In this document: positions 6,583-56,589 of the stretch, piece after piece | Position numbering within the stretch: the stretch's first letter is position 1 | Layout of the letters: every line of letters starts with the position of its first letter | Source of the DNA: an uncultured Alphaproteobacteria bacterium | GTDB taxonomy: Bacteria > Pseudomonadota > Alphaproteobacteria > Rhizobiales > Xanthobacteraceae | Direction: 5' to 3' | Length of the DNA: 64,000 nucleotides | NCBI GenBank assembly: GCA_963742215.1 | Contig: CAVULJ010000009.1 | Coordinates: 84,623 to 148,622 of the forward strand | The notes under the pieces: generated by a model | Database searches by the model: none | Seen by the model: only the letters and a program-made list of their open reading frames with translations | Told to the model about the DNA's origin: nothing | Made by a program: the position numbers and the translations under genes

Positions 6583-6695
6583 GGCGTGCTCCAATGTCAA
6601 TATTGGCGCGGCTTATACGGAACCCCTTCCGGCCCGTCAAACGCTATAGAATGGGTATTACGGCGCTGCGACTGCGGCAGGTCTAAAGGCTGATT

Positions 6696-8166
6696 ATGAC
6701 GGAACAAACGACTGAAGCAGGCCACGAAACCAGACAACAAATCCGTCCCGATATCTGCGTCATCGGCGCCGGCGCGGGCGGGCTCGCGGCGGCCGCCGCG
6801 GCAGCGGCCTTCGGCGTCAATGTCGTGCTGATCGAAAACGGCGGCATGGGCGGTGCAAGCTCCAGTGCCGGCACGCTGCCGGCCAAGGCCTTGATCGCGG
6901 CGGCCGAGCGGGCCAACGCCTATCGCGACGGCGCACGCTTCGGGGTGAAGAGCGCGCGCTATGGCGTCGATTTCGCCGCGGTGCGCGCGCATGTGCGTGA
7001 CGTGCTCGCCGCGGTCGCGCCGGCGCAATCGCGCGAGCGTTTCAATGGCCTCGGAGTGCGCGTTATCGAGGGCGTCGGGCGTTTCCGCGATGCCGAGACC
7101 GTTGCCGTCAACGGCTTCGACGTCAAGGCGCGCCGCTTCGTGATCGCGACCGGCGGGTCGCCTGAACTGCCGCCGATACCGGGGCTGGCCGAAACACCGC
7201 ACCTCACCGCCGCGACCGTGTTCGAGCTTGCCGATTGTCCGCGCCATCTCATCGTCATCGGCGCCGGCGCGGCCGGTCTCGAACTGGCGCAGGCGTTTCG
7301 CCGCCTCGGCGCCGACGTCACCGTGCTCGAAGCGGCGGCGCCGCTTGCTGGCGAGGATCCGGAATGCGCGGGCGTCGTGCTCGACGCGCTCGCCCGCGAG
7401 GGCGTCGTCATCCGCGCCGGCGTGACGATCGCGCGGGTGCGGCGCGCGCTCGCGCGCGTGCAAGTCGATATCGTCACCGCGGCTGGCGGGCGAGACCGTA
7501 ACGGAAACGATCGAAGGCACGCACATCCTGGTCGCCGCCGGCCGGCGCCCGAACATGGAGGAGCTCGATCTCGACGCCGCCGGCATCGACTACGCACCCC
7601 GCGGCATCACCGTCAACCGCCGGCTGCGCACCAGCAACAAGCACGTCTATGCGATCGGCGAAGTAACGGGCGCGCCACCATTTGCGCACCTCGCCAATCA
7701 TCACGCCGGATTGGTGATCCGCAATGCGCTGTTCCGCACGCCGGTCAATGCGGATCGCCATGCCGTTCCGGCTGTGATCTGTACCGATCCCGAATTGGCT
7801 CAGGTCGGCATGACCGAAGACGAGGCGCGCGCGCATTCCGGCATCATCCGCGTGTTGCGCGCCTCTTACCGCGACAACGACCGGGCGCAGGCGACCGGAG
7901 CGACCAGCGGCCATATCAAGATCATCACCGACCGCCGGGGCGATATTCTCGGCGCCACCATCGTCGGCGCCGGCGCGACGGAAAATATCGCCGCCTGGGC
8001 ACTCGCCATAAACCAAAAACTGAATATCGACGCGCTCGCCGGTGTTATTGTGCCGTATCCGACCTATGCCGAGGTGGGAAAACGCGCCGCGATGACCTAT
8101 TTCACCCGTGGTTTGACCAGTCCGCTGGTCCGGCGCATCATAGGCTGGCTGCGTCGTTTTGGCTGA
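6696..8166 (+). pseudogene. FAD-dependent pyridine nucleotide-disulfide oxidoreductase family gene (Lpd/MerA/SthA-like), interrupted by one frameshift
   Basis: The N-terminal part (DICVIGAGAGGLAAA..., second Rossmann motif HLIVIGAGAAGLELA) is in frame 0 to about 7488. The C-terminal part (...ETVTETIEGTHILVAAGRRPNMEELDL...PYPTYAEV...) continues in frame +1. The switch lies in the G-run GGCGGGC at about 7485-7491. Confidence 0.75.
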
Positions 8167-12918: not shown

Positions 12919-14254
12919 ATGGCGAAGTATCCCGAGTATCTCGATGAGCTGCCGCCGGTGCCGCATAGCCGGCGATTGCGGCACTATCTCATCCGCCATC
13001 TGCCGGGCGTTTCGGTCCTGCTGCTGGCGGCGATGCTCGCCACCGTGGTGCTGTGGCCGTACATGATCATCACGGTGCCCAGCGGGCGCGTCGGCGTGCT
13101 GTGGAAGCGCTTCAACGGCATCGATCTTTACTGCTTTTGCTGGGTCGGCCGCGGCACCGTGCTCGACCCGCGGGAAGCCCGCGAGGAAGGCCTACATCTG
13201 ATCTGGCCGTGGGACAGGTTGTTCCTCTACGATTTACGGCTGCAATCCTCCACGCAAACCTACAACGCCATCTCGAAGGACGGCGTGAGCGTGACCGCGC
13301 AGATCAGCGTGCGCTACCAGCTTCTGCACAACTCCGTCGCCGTGCTGCACAAATTCATCGGTCCGGGCTATCTGGATTCGGTGGTGATCCCCGAAATCGG
13401 TAGCCAGGCGCGGCAAGTGATCTCGCAATACACGGCGCAAGAGGTCTATACCTCGCGCGAGTCCGATCCAGAAGGAAATCCGCGAGAACGCGCAAAGGAG
13501 CCTGGCGGCCAACCTGAACAAATTGGTGCAGCCCGAGGCGATGGAGCAGCCCGATCCCAAGCACTACGACGACTTCCTGCAAGCCGCGATTCAAATCCTC
13601 GACACGCTTGTGCTGTCGATCGAATTGCCGCCCGACATCGTGGCGGCGATCAATCGGCAGACCGAGCAGTATTACATGATCCAGGAGTACAAATTCCGCG
13701 TCAGCGTGAAGCCGAGGAATCCAAGCGCAAACAGATCGAGGCGGACGGCATCGCCGCGTTCCAGAAAACGGTCAGCCAGGGGATTTCGGAATCCTATCTG
13801 CGCTGGCGCGGCATCGAGGCGACGCTGATGCTGGCGCAGTCGCCCAACGCCAAGATCGTGATCGTCGGCTCGGGCAAGGACGGCCTGCCGATCATTCTCG
13901 GCAATGTCGACAGCTGGCGCCGCACCCACCGCCGCCCCGGGAGCGATCGCGCCGGGCGCTCCGGCGAACCCGGCCGCCACCACGCCGCCGAATCCGCCGC
14001 CGCTGCCGAACGGCAACGGCGCGCCGGCTGGACCCAAGCCGCCGCCCGGAACGTCGGGCGAAGCGACGCCGCCGGCATCGGACAAAGCCGCCGGCGCGGC
14101 GCCCTCCACCGTGACCGCGGAAACGGACAACACCGCTTCCTCGGCGGGCCCGCTCGACGTCCCCGGCGTTCGCTCGATCATGTCGCGAATTTCCGGCGCC
14201 TTGCGCGCCGGCGCGGATCTGACGTCGCCCGGCGAAACAAAATCCGGACAATAG
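12919..14254 (+). pseudogene. SPFH/band-7 (prohibitin-family) membrane protein gene with three frameshifts
   Basis: The band-7 sequence runs in frame 1 (…SKDGVSVTAQISVRYQL…EVYTSRES). It jumps to frame 2 (IQKEIRENAQRSLAANLNKLVQPEAMEQ…EYKFRVS) at about 13464, back to frame 1 (EAEESKRKQIEADGIAAFQKTV…ILGNVD) at about 13706, and to frame 2 (Pro/Ala-rich tail, stop 14254) at about 13908. Confidence 0.7.
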
Positions 14255-31153: not shown

Positions 31154-31225
31154 TCCGATACCTCACTGCCCGTTAGCATCGGCATGATAGGTGATCGAAT
31201 AGAGATGCTATTTGCTGCGGTGCAT

Positions 31226-32738
31226 GAGTCCGCTTATGGCCCTTAGCGGACGCGCCGGTTGATGACAGCCGCGGCAGCTTTCGGAGGCAAAGATGGGGTA
31301 ATCGGCCGGCGTTCTTGTGGATAGCTAAAGATTGTGGGTGCTGCGCTTCAGGCTGATGGTTCAACGAGGTCCGTGTGCACGGCCTCAAGCATCAGAAGGA
31401 GAAGCGCAGCATGGACTATTTTGCTGGACTGGACGTATCGGTCAAGGAGACCAGCGTCTGCATTGTGGATGACGCGGGCAAGATCGTTCGGGAAGTGAAG
31501 GTCGCGAGCGAACCCGAAGCGTTGTTGGCGGTGCTGAGGAACCCCGCCTACCGCTTCAAGCGGATTGGATTGGAAGCCGGACCATTGTCGCAATGGCTGT
31601 TCAGCGGTCTCGCCGAAGCCGAGTTACCGGCGGTCTGTGTTGAGACACGGCACATGCGAGCAGTGTTGAAGGCGCAGATCAACAAGACGGACCGCAACGA
31701 CGCTCGCGGTATCGCACAGATGATGCGGGTGGGACTTTACCGCCCGGTGCATGTGAAGACGTTACGCAGTCAAAAACTGCGGATGCTGCTGACCCATCGC
31801 AAGCTACTACAGTCGAAGGCCATTGCCGTCGACAATGACCTGCGCGGGACTTTGCGTAACTTCGGTCTCAAGGTAGGCATGGTGGGGACGGTGAAGTTCG
31901 AGGCACGCATCAAGGAGCTGGTCGAGAACTTGCCCGACCTGGCTGTGCTGGTCGAACCGCTGCTTGTCGTCCGGCGGGTGCTTCGCGAGCAGTTTGTCAT
32001 CCTACATCGTCGTTTGCTGGCCATCGTGCGAGACGACGAGGTGTGCCGGCGCCTGATAACGACCCCCGGGGTCGGCCCCGTGGTAGCGCTGACCTATCGC
32101 GCCACCGTCGACGTACCGGCTCGGTTCCGTAAATCCAAGGCAGTCGGTGCCGTGTTTGGGCTGACGTGTTCCAAGTATCAATCCGGCGAGATCGATCGAA
32201 GCGGCAGAATATCACGCTGCGGAGATGAGATGATGCGGGTCATGCTCTACGAAGCAGCTCAGAGCATGCTGCGTTCGAAGAAATGGTCTTGGCTCAAAGC
32301 CTGGGCGATGCAGATCGCCAGGCGCCGCGGGATGAAGAAGGCGATCGTGGCGCTGGCACGCCGACTGGCCGTGATCATGCACCGCATCTGGGTTGACGGC
32401 ACCGAGTTCCGCTGGACCCGGGAACACGTCGCGGCGGCAGCATAAAAACCGTGCAGGATCAATTACGATAGGAGAACACTCGAGCTCCACCCAGCGGTGG
32501 AATGATGTCCCTCGCGGGACGATGGATGAGGTGAGTTCGCATGTCCGCTTGGACCTACCGTTCGTCTGACGGCAACGCCGCGGTAAAGATTGTTCCGCCT
32601 CGTCTTCGAATCCCATGATGGAAGGGCCTTGGTGCCGATTCCGAAGAGAAGCACGAGCCCGTGAGCGACATCGACACTGCAGCGGCGAAAAGTCTGAAAG
32701 TGCTTGACCCCAAACGGCCGATTAGAGAAGCGGACATC
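31226..32738 (+). mobile_element. IS110-family insertion sequence, copy B
   Basis: Same 1,513-bp block as copy A, offset by exactly 5,730 bp, in the same orientation. Confidence 0.85.
31411..32445 (+). CDS. IS110-family transposase (DEDD recombinase), 344 aa
   Basis: Translation is identical to the copy A transposase. Confidence 0.9.
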   Translation: MDYFAGLDVSVKETSVCIVDDAGKIVREVKVASEPEALLAVLRNPAYRFKRIGLEAGPLSQWLFSGLAEAELPAVCVETRHMRAVLKAQINKTDRNDARGIAQMMRVGLYRPVHVKTLRSQKLRMLLTHRKLLQSKAIAVDNDLRGTLRNFGLKVGMVGTVKFEARIKELVENLPDLAVLVEPLLVVRRVLREQFVILHRRLLAIVRDDEVCRRLITTPGVGPVVALTYRATVDVPARFRKSKAVGAVFGLTCSKYQSGEIDRSGRISRCGDEMMRVMLYEAAQSMLRSKKWSWLKAWAMQIARRRGMKKAIVALARRLAVIMHRIWVDGTEFRWTREHVAAAA

Positions 32739-32835
32739 CTAATTTGACCGCGCCGCGGCAGCTAATGACCCAAACTGGCCATCGCGCCAGGGCGTGCGCG
32801 TGAAGTACTGGCCGCGGCTGCGGCTTATTGCGATG

Positions 32836-36747: not shown

Positions 36748-37575
36748 TTACTCGGCCGCCGCCGCCGTTTCGGCCAGCACCGGCGCCTTCTCGTTGGTAC
36801 CGGATTCCGGCAGCAGCGCTGCGGCCTTCAGGCCGGCCTGGACTTTTGGCACCGTCGTCTTCACGTCGGTGATCGGCAGGCCATGGGTCGGCGCGATGGT
36901 TTTGACGCCAAGGCGCTCGATCAGATGGTCGAGCCGGTCGCAATAGACGTTCATGTCGGCGAACTTGGTCCAGAACAGAGCGAGGTCCGCGAAGGTCGCC
37001 GATACGTCCGGCAGATCGAGCGAGACGGCTTCCTCGGCGACGAGACCGCAATGGCCGTCCTCGTGATAGTGGCTATAGGCAAAGCCGTCGCCTGGAAACA
37101 GCACGCGCTCCTTGGTGTCAAAACCCCACCAGGTGGTGCGCAGGTCGCGGATCACCGGTTCGACCGCCATCAGCGTGCGGCCGCCGAGCGCGATCTCGTC
37201 GCCCTCCTTCATCCACCGCATGCGGTGTTCGTATTGCGGGAAGGCGAGGTGATAATCGCTGACATCGCCGACCAAGAGCGCATCGGGGAAGGATTTGAGG
37301 ATGCGGCCAAGCCCCCCGCAATGCGGCGTCTCCTGGTGGGTGACGAACAGATATTTGAGCGGCGCCACACCTTGCGCAAACAGCTCGTTCAGGTGCCGTT
37401 CGATGACCGGAAAATCTTTCGGATGACCCGTCTCGACCAGGATCGAGGCGTCTTCGCCGGCGACCAGGAAGGCGGCGTTATAGCCGTGATAGACCTTGCC
37501 CTTGTGCCGCTGCAGCAGACAATCGCCGATCCAGAACACGCCAGGCGCGATCTCGCGGGGCATTTTTCCGGCCAT
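36748..37575 (-). CDS. MBL-fold protein of the di-iron (flavodiiron/ODP-like) type
   Basis: …NAAFLVAGEDASILVETGHP… and the motif THQETPHCGG (an H-x-E-x-x-H variant of the H-x-E-x-D-H di-iron motif), plus downstream His/Asp residues (…FPGDGFAYSHYHEDGHCG…). Confidence 0.65.
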   Translation of the reverse strand: MAGKMPREIAPGVFWIGDCLLQRHKGKVYHGYNAAFLVAGEDASILVETGHPKDFPVIERHLNELFAQGVAPLKYLFVTHQETPHCGGLGRILKSFPDALLVGDVSDYHLAFPQYEHRMRWMKEGDEIALGGRTLMAVEPVIRDLRTTWWGFDTKERVLFPGDGFAYSHYHEDGHCGLVAEEAVSLDLPDVSATFADLALFWTKFADMNVYCDRLDHLIERLGVKTIAPTHGLPITDVKTTVPKVQAGLKAAALLPESGTNEKAPVLAETAAAAE

Positions 37576-37578
37576 AAC

Positions 37579-38508
37579 TCAGCGCTCCTCGTCGCGGGTG
37601 ACGTAGCGCGACACCGCCACGCTTTTGTCGCAAGCTTTCAAAAACTCATCCAGCATCCGGTAGTGCCGCGCCACTACGTTGCGGCCGCGCAGGATGCAGC
37701 CATAGCCGGGCGCGATGGTCTCGATGTCGTATTTGTCGAACACGTTGCCGATGCCGCGGCGGATCGAGTCGGTCGGCGCGCCTTCGAGCCACCAATAGCG
37801 CGTGTTCAGCATGAACGAGCGAACGTCGGAGAGCGACGTTGAGTCGTTGTCCGATGCGGTAACGATCCACGGACCGTTCTGGCTGTCGCGCCAGACATGG
37901 GTGAACATATCGGATGAGAACAGCGTTCGCGTCGCGCGGTCGTAGAGCCAGCGTGTGGCGATCAGCCGGATCGGCGCCTGCATGACGTCGATCGCCCGGC
38001 CGCCCTTGCCAAGCTCGATCGTGTCGGCCCTGGTGACCGCGGTGACCTTCATCGATTTGAGGATGTCGCGGCCTCCCGCCCTGGCGCCGAAATCGAACCA
38101 CAAAGCCGCATCGATATTGCTGGTGTAGCAGGTCTCGACGTTGAAATGGCCGGCAAAACTCTCGACGTTGTTGATCGACATGAATTCGTTGAGCCGCAGC
38201 GGGAACATCGACAGCGGCAGTCCCGGTGCGATCAGCTGCTCGATCTGGGTCCGGATCGTCCGCTCGTCCTTGCCGAAGCCGGTATCGATCAGCATGGCGG
38301 CGTCGCTTTGCGTCAACAGATAGCTGTTGGCCACTGAAAATCCCCGGGCGCTTCCCGGATAGGAGCTGACCCGGCCGTCAAGCGCGAAGGGATTTTGCAG
38401 CGCGTAGAGCCGATCGTCCGCCAGCGAGGCGATGCCGCCGGTAAAGCCTTGCGGCCCGCGCGTTTGCTTATGCGATTCTTGCGGCGGGTATTGGGTCACT
38501 ATCGACAT
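37579..38508 (-). CDS. Divergent MBL-fold-like protein lacking the metal motif (paralogous partner of the downstream gene)
   Basis: …SYLLTQSDAAMLIDTGFGKD… has an MBL-like beta-strand pattern, but the H-x-H-x-D-H position reads FPLRLNEFMSINN. There is a 3-nt gap to the next gene and a 46-nt gap after lanM. Confidence 0.5.
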   Translation of the reverse strand: MSIVTQYPPQESHKQTRGPQGFTGGIASLADDRLYALQNPFALDGRVSSYPGSARGFSVANSYLLTQSDAAMLIDTGFGKDERTIRTQIEQLIAPGLPLSMFPLRLNEFMSINNVESFAGHFNVETCYTSNIDAALWFDFGARAGGRDILKSMKVTAVTRADTIELGKGGRAIDVMQAPIRLIATRWLYDRATRTLFSSDMFTHVWRDSQNGPWIVTASDNDSTSLSDVRSFMLNTRYWWLEGAPTDSIRRGIGNVFDKYDIETIAPGYGCILRGRNVVARHYRMLDEFLKACDKSVAVSRYVTRDEER

Positions 38509-38554: not shown

Positions 38555-41500
38555 TCATTCCCAGATCAGCACATTGGGCAGCGACCAATCGATCTGCCGC
38601 AGCAGCGTGTAGCCGACGCCGGAAAGCCCGCGGAACAGACCGAGATTGAATTGGCGCTTGCCGCTGTTCCAGCGGTAGTCGCCGGTTGCAGCGGCACGCG
38701 CCAGGACGGCGATGAGGCGCTGCGAGGCGAGTGCGCGCAGATCGTCGCGGCTGAGTGCGTCGGCCGCCTCGCAGAAAAATTCAATGCCGCCGAGCGTGCC
38801 GCAACACAGCGTGTCGACCGGTGTCGGCTGGTTTCGCTCGACGCCTTCGACCGCGTTGCCGATATCCGCAGCCAGCGGCTTGGCATCTCGCTTCGCATTG
38901 GCGCCGCCGCGCTTGACCACGGCGAGACGCGCCAGGCCGATGCCGGCGGCGCCGTGGCACCATTGGCACGGCCAATGCGGTTTCTCGGCGCGCAGATCGG
39001 GCCAATTGTGGCGCCCGGCGTCGTAGCTTGAATCTTCAAAAGCGATGCATGCGGACGCGGCCACCGCAAAATCGTCGCGCCCCGTCGCCGCTGCCAGCGC
39101 GGCGAGCGCATAGGCAAAGCCCGCCGCGCCATGCGACATGCCGTTGAGCGCATGGGACGGCTTGCGCGCCCGAGCCCTGTCCGAGCCAGGTGCGGCGTCC
39201 CTCGGCTCCGAGCTGCGATTGCGCCAACAGATGTTCGCCGCATTTCGTCGCGCGAAAAAGCACGTCGCCGGATTTGGTATCGCGATAAAGCCGCAGCAGC
39301 GCTAGGATCGCGCCGGCGCTGCCGCCCATCACGTCGAGCTGCTTGTCCGCCGCAATGAGCTCGTCGGTAAAGAGTCGCGCCGCCGCATCCGCATCGGCGA
39401 GCAAGATCGGCATTGTTGAGGCATTTCGCCGTCACGAGCCAAGCGCATAGACGATCGAGCCGAGCCCGGTGGCGCCGCCAATGCCGAGCGCCCGCGCCAT
39501 GCCGCGCGGCGTTGCGGCTTTTCAGGCTCTTGCGCAGATGCGACAGCGCGGCGAGCGCCAGCTCGCCCGACGCGGTGTTGCCCGTCACCGCCGCATGCGC
39601 GGCAAGAAACACCGCGATGCCGCTAGTGCCGTTGTAGAGATCCGGGCCGAGGCAGACGAGCTGGAAAACCTCGGAATCGCCGAGCCAGTCGAGGCCGATC
39701 CAGGCGGCGCCCGGTCCGCGGCGAATGGCGTAACCCGACATTTCCGCGGCGATGTTGTCGGCTTCGGCGGCGAACGCTGCTTTGGCGCGGCGCGAGCTGC
39801 GCACGCGCCGGCACGTCGTGCTGGCGGCGCGGCGGCTGCGCCGGCGGCCGCATTTGGCGTGACCGAATTGGTATTCTCGCGGATGACCTCGATCTGCCAG
39901 GCGATCTCGCGCTTCATCGAGGTTTTGCAGACGCGCGCGCGGCGCGATCCAGTCCCGGAATCGCGGCGGTGCGGACGGCAATGCCGGCCGCGTCGGCAAT
40001 CCCGCCGCCATCGCTTGGTGAAACGAAATGCGGCACGTTGAGCGCCAACAGCGCGTCGCGTTCGGCGCGGTGCAACGGCCATAGCGGATCGAAATCCTTG
40101 TCCCATTGCGACAGCCTGGCGACGAAGTCGGCTTGCGCGGACCAGATCGCGCCGTCATCCATGCTGCGGTGATTTTTCAGCCGCTGCAGCAGCATGTAGT
40201 AAAAACGGGTAGGGCGGATGACTTTGCGGACCGCAAGCCCGGCAAAGCCGCCGAGCAGCGCGTCGGGCGTCGCTGCTCCATTGCGACAGGAATTTCGCGT
40301 AATCGGCAAAGCCCGAGACGAAGCTTTCGATGTGATCGCCGAACTTGGCGTAACGGCCATCGACATGCGGCAGATTGGTATTGGTCTCGCCCGCTTCTTT
40401 GATTCTCGCCGGCCGCATCGCGTCGGTGTTGATATCATTCCAGGCGATGACGGTCCGTTCGCCCCAGTCCGCGGTCATGCCGCCCATGGCGAACACCTGG
40501 TTGTCCACCGAGCGGCCGTAAGCGGGCAAGCAGCCCGACCGTCATCACCGAGTTGCCGATAATGTCCATGGCGGCATCGAAGGCCTCGCCCCTCGGCTTC
40601 CTGGGCTTTGTGTTCCTCGGCGCTCGGCTGCAGGATGGTTTCCAGATCGACCGGCACCGGCTGATCGCCGGCCGCGATCATGTTCTCCTGGTGCATGTCG
40701 GTCGTGGCGAAGACGTGGAATAGCGCGAGGAGGGCGCCGGCACGGCGGAAAAATCGCGCGCATGCCGAAGCGTCGGCGCAGCCGGCATGGGCGATGAATT
40801 CGGTCCAGCCATAGCCGTCGCGCGCGATTGCGCGCGCCGCCCGCAGCGCGACCGGTGGATTGGCGCCGTTGAGCCGCTCGATCAGAGCGTGCCAGGCGAC
40901 GTCGAGCCGCAAATCCTTCGGCTTGTAGGCGACGCGCCCGCCGTCGGCGAAAGTCACGATCAGGACCGCATGGCCGCCATTGTGCGGATCGGAAAGGCCG
41001 CCCTCGATTTTGGCGACGCCGCCGTCGGCGGTGGATCGCAGAATATCGTGCCGAAGCAGCGCCAGATCGGCATCCAGCCGCAGCACGAATTCGCGCGACG
41101 TGTCGATCCATTGCCGCGTGACGGCCGCGATGAGCCGCAACAGCACCGGCTTGTCTTCGAACAGCAGCCGCAAGCCGCCGGCTTTCATGGCGGTGACGAA
41201 TTGATCGTAGCCTGCGGGATTTGCAGCGGGACTTGCAGCGCCCTCCGTTGCGCCGGCGCCGCGCGCCTGGGCGAAACGTTCGTAGATCGCGGGAGCGCAG
41301 AGCTCCGATAATTGCACCAGCAGCGACTGGTGAAGATCGGCGCGCGCGGATTGGCGGAGCCTGTCGATGACGCGGGCGTCGAGTCCGGACCAAAGCCGCG
41401 CGCCGGCTTGTTCGACGACCGGCGCGAGCAGGTGTTCAAATGCTACCGGTGCGGTCACCGGCCTGGCGTCGCCGCCAAGACGTCTATTCGAGCTCTGTAG

Positions 41501-41818
41501 TGCCGCTTCGATCCAAACTGCATCGTCGAGCCATGCCGGCGCGGCAACGCCGGCGCTGCGGCGGACCGCGCCAAAGCGCTCATTGAGCGTCGCCATCGAC
41601 AGCGCATCGCGGTCAAGCCGCCGCGCAAACAGCGGCTCGTCGCGGGCGGCGGCGGACCGGTGCCACGCGGCAAGACGCCGCGCGAAAAGCGCGTTGTCGT
41701 CGCTCTCGCCGGGTGCGGCTTCGAACGCGTCCGAAACGAGCTCGTCGATGGTGGCGGCGCGCATGCCAAAGCGCTCAAAAAAGCCGTCTCGGCCGCAGCC
41801 TCCGATTAGGGGTGTCAT
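38555..41818 (-). pseudogene. lanM: Class II lanthipeptide synthetase (LanM) gene disrupted by about ten frameshifts
   Basis: The dehydratase part is intact in one frame (41818 to about 40590), including HVFATTDMHQENMIAAGDQPVPVDLETI. The rest is spread over three frames (…AFDAAMDIIGNSVMTVGLL / PAYGRSVDNQVF… / …RKVIRPTRFYYMLLQRL… / …REIAWQIEVIRE… / …DLYNGTSGIAVFLA… / …GGATGLGSIVYAL… / …DVMGGSAGAIL…). The LanC-like end carries NGMSHGAAGFAYAL, WCHGAAGIG and CCGTLG zinc-ligand motifs. Confidence 0.85.
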
Positions 41819-42119
41819 TCATCGTCGCAGAGCGTTTCCATCCATGTCCGGGCGGCCCTGTGCTTATCCTCGGCCGGGGGCCTCGATTGCTGCGTAAAGT
41901 GGCGGCACCGGGGCACCTCCGACGGCCGTTTTAGGGACCAAAAAGGCTGCCGGGATCGCCCGATTATCTCCAGAAATCAGCCACCTGTCACAATAGCGGA
42001 CGCACTTTACACCCACCGCGGCCGATGATTTAATGGGCACCTGGCGGGGGGTTTTTTAGCGAATTTCTCGTCGTGCCTAGTGACTGCCGGCGCCGCTGGC
42101 GAACAAAAGGAACAGAGTT

Positions 42120-42278
42120 ATGAAAGACATCAACATCGACCAGAGGGAAGAAGAGATCCTCATTGACGTTTCCGACGCGGCGCTGGAAGCAGCGGCGGGT
42201 TCGGTAAAGGAGAAGGCTGGGGCCTTCACGCTCTCGTTCTGCTCGGGCCTGGACACCTGCCCCGGTATCCGCTCCTAA
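42120..42278 (+). CDS. Candidate class II lanthipeptide precursor (LanA-like), 52 aa
   Basis: Not in the ORF track. AAGGAA lies 8 nt before the ATG. Product is MKDINIDQREEEILIDVSDAALEAAAGSVKEKAGAFTLSFCSGLDTCPGIRS: an acidic leader ending in a G-S/A-G junction and a Cys/Ser/Thr-rich core. Divergent from lanM and followed by a hairpin. Confidence 0.6.
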   Translation: MKDINIDQREEEILIDVSDAALEAAAGSVKEKAGAFTLSFCSGLDTCPGIRS

Positions 42279-56158: not shown

Positions 56159-56589
56159 GGCTCCCTCGATGCCGGACCGGAGGAATTCATTAGACTTAAT
56201 CAATAGTTCTTTTATCCACACGGATCAATGCGTTCGCACGCGCGGGTCGACGCGGCACATCGCTCCCCATGGAACCGTTGGGCGGCGCCCTATGGTAGCG
56301 GCTTGATATCAAAGTTATCTGTGATTTCAAGCATTTAAGGGGAGAACTGACGCCGCTGCCAGGCGTGGAAGGAATATTTGACCGTGGCTGGAACTGCTAG
56401 GGGATTAAACTTAACCAACATTTTACCCATCAATTTTGACACAATGCCGCAAGAATTCGCTAAGATATTGTGAACGTGAGGGGGAAGACCCCCGACAAAA
56501 AACCAATCCGTCGACGAACGGTTCATTCCGATGTCGTGCGCCCAGAAATCAAGGATCAGGGACGCGACGCCGGAAATGGGAGACGTAGT

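Follow-up and report, generated by a model that had tools for sequence, protein, structure and literature searches.

The lanM locus and its neighbouring genes

The window, by which we mean the whole 64,000-nt stretch of DNA analysed, contains on its minus strand a gene for a class II lanthipeptide synthetase (LanM), together with a divergently oriented precursor peptide gene and two downstream genes of the ODP family:

38558..41822, minus strand: lanM, class II lanthipeptide synthetase gene, collinear with intact orthologues, with 13 frame breaks that spread it across three frames
42120..42278, plus strand: lanA, intact precursor peptide gene (ORF of 52 codons), divergent from lanM
36748..38508, minus strand: two intact ODP-family metallo-beta-lactamase-fold genes (PF19583, PF00753), directly downstream of lanM

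The Pfam domains of lanM were found in pieces. The dehydratase domain DUF4135 (PF13575) makes up the N-terminal part as three collinear pieces, covering profile positions 2–185, 218–294 and 296–376, and the cyclase domain LANC_like (PF05147) makes up the C-terminal part, likewise in three pieces; the pieces of both domains are collinear in order and lie in differing minus-strand frames. The motifs SHGAAG, WCHGAAGIG and CCGTLG, which hold the Cys/Cys/His zinc ligands typical of LanC-like cyclases, are all present in the 194-aa terminal ORF, in line with the first-pass annotation of this DNA, which had listed them as retained. When the breaks are read through, the gene encodes 1084 aa with zero stop codons, and this read-through matches TIGR03897 in a single stretch over model positions 2–930 of 932 with 741 bits (cut-off 304), as compared to 730 bits for the intact LanM encoded by the closest public orthologue (L001). 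The segments had earlier been described as collinear pieces of one LanM carrying indels only, with neither a nonsense codon nor a large deletion, and the HMM match and the stop-free read-through bear out both statements. The flanking ORFs are uninterrupted, so that the genes on both sides had rightly been called intact. The collinear, frame-broken lanM is a real observation and far from a chance arrangement.

The window gene is an ordinary LanM accompanied by its LanA. It shares with other class II lanthipeptide systems (LanM with LanA, including ProcM/ProcA-like systems, LicM2 and CylM) the combination of DUF4135 with a LanC-like zinc-motif cyclase, the small precursor gene adjoining lanM and, for the read-through, the full-length match to TIGR03897; relatives of solved structure are LicM2 (6st5) and, more distantly, CylM (5dzt). 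By tblastn, 69 of 80 related loci have a match to lanA next to their lanM. Unlike these systems, the deposited lanM is not one open frame, as a LanM would require, but is interrupted 13 times. The window further differs from class II lanthipeptide systems in general by the two downstream ODP-family (di-iron) genes, a pair confined to the window and its closest relatives and syntenic with lanM in L001 and L002 only.

Position and spectrum of the frame breaks

The breaks were mapped by a frameshift-aware alignment of the LanM protein of L001, a locus of an uncultured alphaproteobacterial MAG whose 1074-codon lanM is uninterrupted, and by a nucleotide alignment of the two genes (90% identity). 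Of the 13 frame breaks, 12 are single extra bases (at approximately 41790, 40587, 40530, 40269/40271, 39940, 39914, 39819, 39786, 39500, 39441, 39436 and 39402) and one is a 2-base deficit. The first-pass annotation had followed the frame through about ten switches, and the alignment to L001 recovered its ten points to within a few bases while showing the count to be too low: the interval 39780–39870 holds two breaks (39819 and 39786) instead of one, as does the point given as 39435 (39436 and 39441). The break placed at 39190 exists but lies at 39161. A further break at 41790 had been missed, because of which the gene was thought to start at 41818, the true start codon being at 41822.

Each site was compared with short-read contigs, here labelled X1 to X5. 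X1 is a peat metagenome run kept as contigs of mostly 150–900 nt, hence apparently short-read; it holds a very close relative (a sister strain) of the organism in the window, from another strain and sample, and its contigs are 96–100% identical to the window lanM. The contigs of X2–X5 are more distant, with ~85–95% identity. The breaks are as follows:

41790, minus strand: frame break, one extra base, 11 codons past the true start; lacking in an X1 contig of 240 nt that has no mismatches
40587 and 40530, minus strand: two frame breaks, one extra base each; both missing in a 328-nt X1 contig, 40530 also in X2 and X3
40269..40271, minus strand: frame break, one extra base; X1 omits 40271, X3 and X4 omit 40269
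39940, 39914, 39819 and 39786, minus strand: four frame breaks, one extra base each; omitted in the X3, X4 and X5 short-read contigs
39402..39502, minus strand: four frame breaks (39500, 39441, 39436, 39402), one extra base each; X1 is without 39500 and 39402, X3 and X5 are without all four
39161, minus strand: frame break, window 2 bases short; X2, X3 and X5 contigs carry CG after 39161

X1 was without the extra base at all six lanM sites that it covers (39402, 39500, 40271, 40530, 40587 and 41790) and had no other indel there; with the break near 7491 in another gene of the window included, the extra base was missing at 7/7 covered sites. The 240-nt contig across 41790 differs from the window in that one base only. 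At the other seven lanM breaks the contigs of X2–X5 keep the frame. Each of the six bases omitted by X1 is unlike both of its neighbours, so that none extends a homopolymer. The breaks at 39786..39940 fall in the linker that joins the two LanM domains and is poorly conserved.

Divergence between X1 and the window is uneven, amounting to 2.6–4% in the middle of lanM vs mostly 0–0.6% in the flanks. Across ~30 kb of flanking DNA only six indels separate the two (three insertions and three deletions), all in stretches without convincing ORFs, and the flanking coding sequence is indel-free. The window and X1 differ by 27 substitutions; polarising these with L001 as outgroup assigned 14 to the window lineage (8 nonsynonymous, 6 synonymous) and 11 to that of X1 (6 and 5, respectively), as compared to 6 indels on the window lineage and 0 on the X1 lineage in the same stretch. 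The substitution counts are thus balanced between the lineages, and the window lanM accordingly shows neither a surplus of change nor relaxed selection. None of the marks by which a pseudogene would be recognised (stop codons, deletions, a nonsynonymous excess) is present in it.

Searches for the deposited version of the gene gave no support for it. Among the public runs searched, 31-mers across three of the insertions had no match (a weak result, many runs not being served), and no run was returned when Nanopore libraries alone were searched. Two pattern scans, using a break site with and without its extra base, matched three JGI metagenome contigs, which BLAST showed to have no other similarity to the window and which were set aside as chance matches. 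An error linked to methylation at GANTC was likewise dropped, as the motif was found at none of the break sites inspected.

Assembly type and the origin of the extra bases

The window stems from a long-read assembly, since short reads could not have assembled eight 429-nt tandem copies that are 99.5–100% identical (3.4 kb) and two insertion sequence (IS) copies of ~1.55 kb (1556 nt), all of which are resolved in the one contig. As to platform and assembler, we infer that it was probably Nanopore-only and produced with Flye and Medaka. [quoted passage not shown] Of the 80 orthologous loci, 44 come from these Nanopore-only MAGs, and 13 of these 44 lanM copies have frame breaks; the 33 complete orthologues found in other assemblies, most of them short-read, have none (Fisher p = 3.7e-4). 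Of the 17 internal events in the MFD-LR orthologues, 13 are again one additional base. The broken copies (L006, L007, L008, L018, L027, L035, L040, L041, L051, L054, L064, L073 and L075) carry 1–3 breaks each. The comparison with orthologous loci that the first-pass annotation had proposed thus finds orthologues and short-read contigs in frame wherever the breaks are covered, bar these 13 Nanopore-only copies.

We consider it likely that the 13 breaks in lanM are consensus errors of long-read metagenome assembly rather than decay, the gene being most likely intact in the organism. Several lines of evidence argue for this: the contig is of long-read origin; no short-read data covering the breaks contain them; they are almost all insertions, and the six that could be placed exactly lie outside homopolymers; no other form of decay accompanies them, given the lack of stop codons, the undiminished HMM score (741 vs 730 bits) and the balanced substitutions; the breaks in orthologues are confined to Nanopore-only MAGs; and both lanA and the genes downstream of lanM are undamaged. 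The first-pass annotation had put a recent, indel-driven inactivation beside an error-rich assembly as the two possibilities, and the insertion-only spectrum, the missing short-read support and the Nanopore-only orthologue breaks favour the second. Residual frameshifts in long-read assemblies are the problem that proovframe and the IDEEL test address. The lesions in the window resemble the frameshift errors of long-read-only MAGs (Nanopore assemblies by Flye and Medaka) in that single-base indels split a conserved gene and are missing from short reads, and in that the same indel type recurs in Nanopore-only MAGs of the same clade.

Some features count against an assembly error, namely that the errors would be strikingly local, that they are not of the homopolymer type, and that X1 is a sister strain rather than the source. 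Typical errors in long-read MAGs are scattered homopolymer deletions, whereas here non-homopolymer insertions are clustered in one gene of an otherwise clean assembly; a 7.5-kb ORF, both IS copies and most of the neighbouring genes are free of errors. Residual Nanopore consensus errors have also been described as usually being homopolymer indels (PMC9262707), which the lanM lesions are not.

This locality is probably accounted for by strain variation. The sampled population was probably heterogeneous at lanM, which would concentrate errors there; we propose this because the middle of the gene differs from X1 by 2.6–4% and the flanks mostly by 0–0.6%. The assembly probably merged reads of two variants into a single consensus, in which case closely spaced variants would shift the read alignments and the polisher would retain letters of both, giving single extra bases that the source reads themselves would lack. 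Several of the breaks look like the two alleles of one SNP set in tandem; in gene orientation, CCG and CCA may have yielded CCGA, CTG and TTG may have yielded CTTG, and CTG and ATG may have yielded CATG. These examples are offered as illustration and carry no statistical weight; at 40269/40271 the X3 and X4 contigs proved to be a more distant variant and give no direct proof of such tandem alleles. A precedent is the collapsed long-read assembly of Trypanosoma brucei Tb427, where nearby allelic variants led to read misalignment and to INDEL errors that truncated ORFs (PMC8445201). As in that assembly, the breaks in the window occur where nearby allele variants would disturb the alignment, the window lanM being the most polymorphic stretch of its neighbourhood. 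The two cases differ in that the Tb427 alleles are those of homologous chromosomes in a diploid, whereas the 'alleles' of the window would belong to co-occurring strains of a metagenome, where we infer the mechanism.

A real and very recent pseudogene, hit 13 times by an insertion-biased process while the peat sister strains remained intact, is an unlikely explanation, though it is the strongest of the competing ones. The breaks do stand in the deposited sequence, biosynthetic gene clusters are often lost, and a set of lesions specific to the strain is conceivable as X1 is not the same strain; the higher divergence of mid-lanM from X1 relative to the flanks and the indel-free flanking coding sequence, by which the assembly is not error-rich throughout, are also compatible with it. 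Natural indels, however, stem mainly from slippage in runs, with a bias towards deletion, which is the opposite of a spectrum with 12 of 13 insertions and with the six exactly placed ones outside runs. The ratio of 6 indels to 14 substitutions on the window lineage is far above that of neutral decay, and a decaying gene sits poorly with a read-through that has neither stop codon nor deletion and an undiminished HMM score, with a lineage showing no substitution excess and no nonsynonymous shift, and with an intact lanA and intact downstream genes. Lesions of the same type in orthologues, occurring only in Nanopore-only MAGs, point away from it as well.

Somewhat less probable still, and in our view doubtful, is that the extra bases are present in the DNA and that a localised, insertion-biased, non-slippage process inactivated lanM and struck two other genes of the window, leaving no trace of decay. 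Were the lesions real, their restriction to insertions would suggest a mutational process of an unusual kind. That the extra bases are real and that the gene is expressed through programmed +1 frameshifting, quadruplet decoding or RNA-level deletion at each site can practically be dismissed: a shift of +1 is common to nearly all lesions and the protein is perfectly conserved between them, but the sequence contexts differ, with no motif, slippery sequence or codon common to the break sites, twelve successive events would leave a negligible yield, the bases are missing from closely related DNA, and we know of no bacterial precedent for such serial recoding.

As consensus errors, the breaks quite probably make the broken lanM no biological feature, and they matter chiefly as an issue of data quality. 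A search of this genome, or of similar long-read MAGs, for biosynthetic gene clusters would mistake this lanthipeptide cluster for a dead one, and pseudogene counts in such MAGs are inflated in the same way. That errors cluster where strains vary is a useful warning sign.

Other features of the window

Two further genes of the window contain frame switches. A flavoprotein gene (FAD oxidoreductase-like; 6687–8163, plus strand) has one, near 7491, at which a near-identical X1 contig is one base shorter, a lesion of the same type as those in lanM. In an SPFH/prohibitin-like gene (13000–14250, plus strand), which lies outside the coverage of X1, candidate frame changes were seen at ~13460, 13706 and 13908, and these are not always of the +1 kind. 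Two approaches to detecting frames across the window were abandoned: a GC3 phase plot was too noisy, and an ORF-tiling heuristic chose wrong-strand shadow ORFs at the FAD and SPFH genes.

The tandem copies are part of a giant ORF at 56464–63999, which has at least 2512 codons and runs past the end of the window. Within it, at 58590–62450, lie nine tandem repeats of 429 nt (143 aa) each; eight of them share 99.5–100% identity among themselves, and the first shares ~92% with the others. The IS copies lie at 25490–27044 and 31220–32774, each with a transposase ORF of 363 aa, and differ from each other only close to the ends. In one X1 contig, 34 other letters take the place of everything between 25525 and 26998, the first IS copy thus being absent from the sister strain. 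In another X1 contig, 24 other letters separate 43141 from 50125, and the skipped part, which includes a low-GC section at 45–50 kb, may be a strain-variable island.
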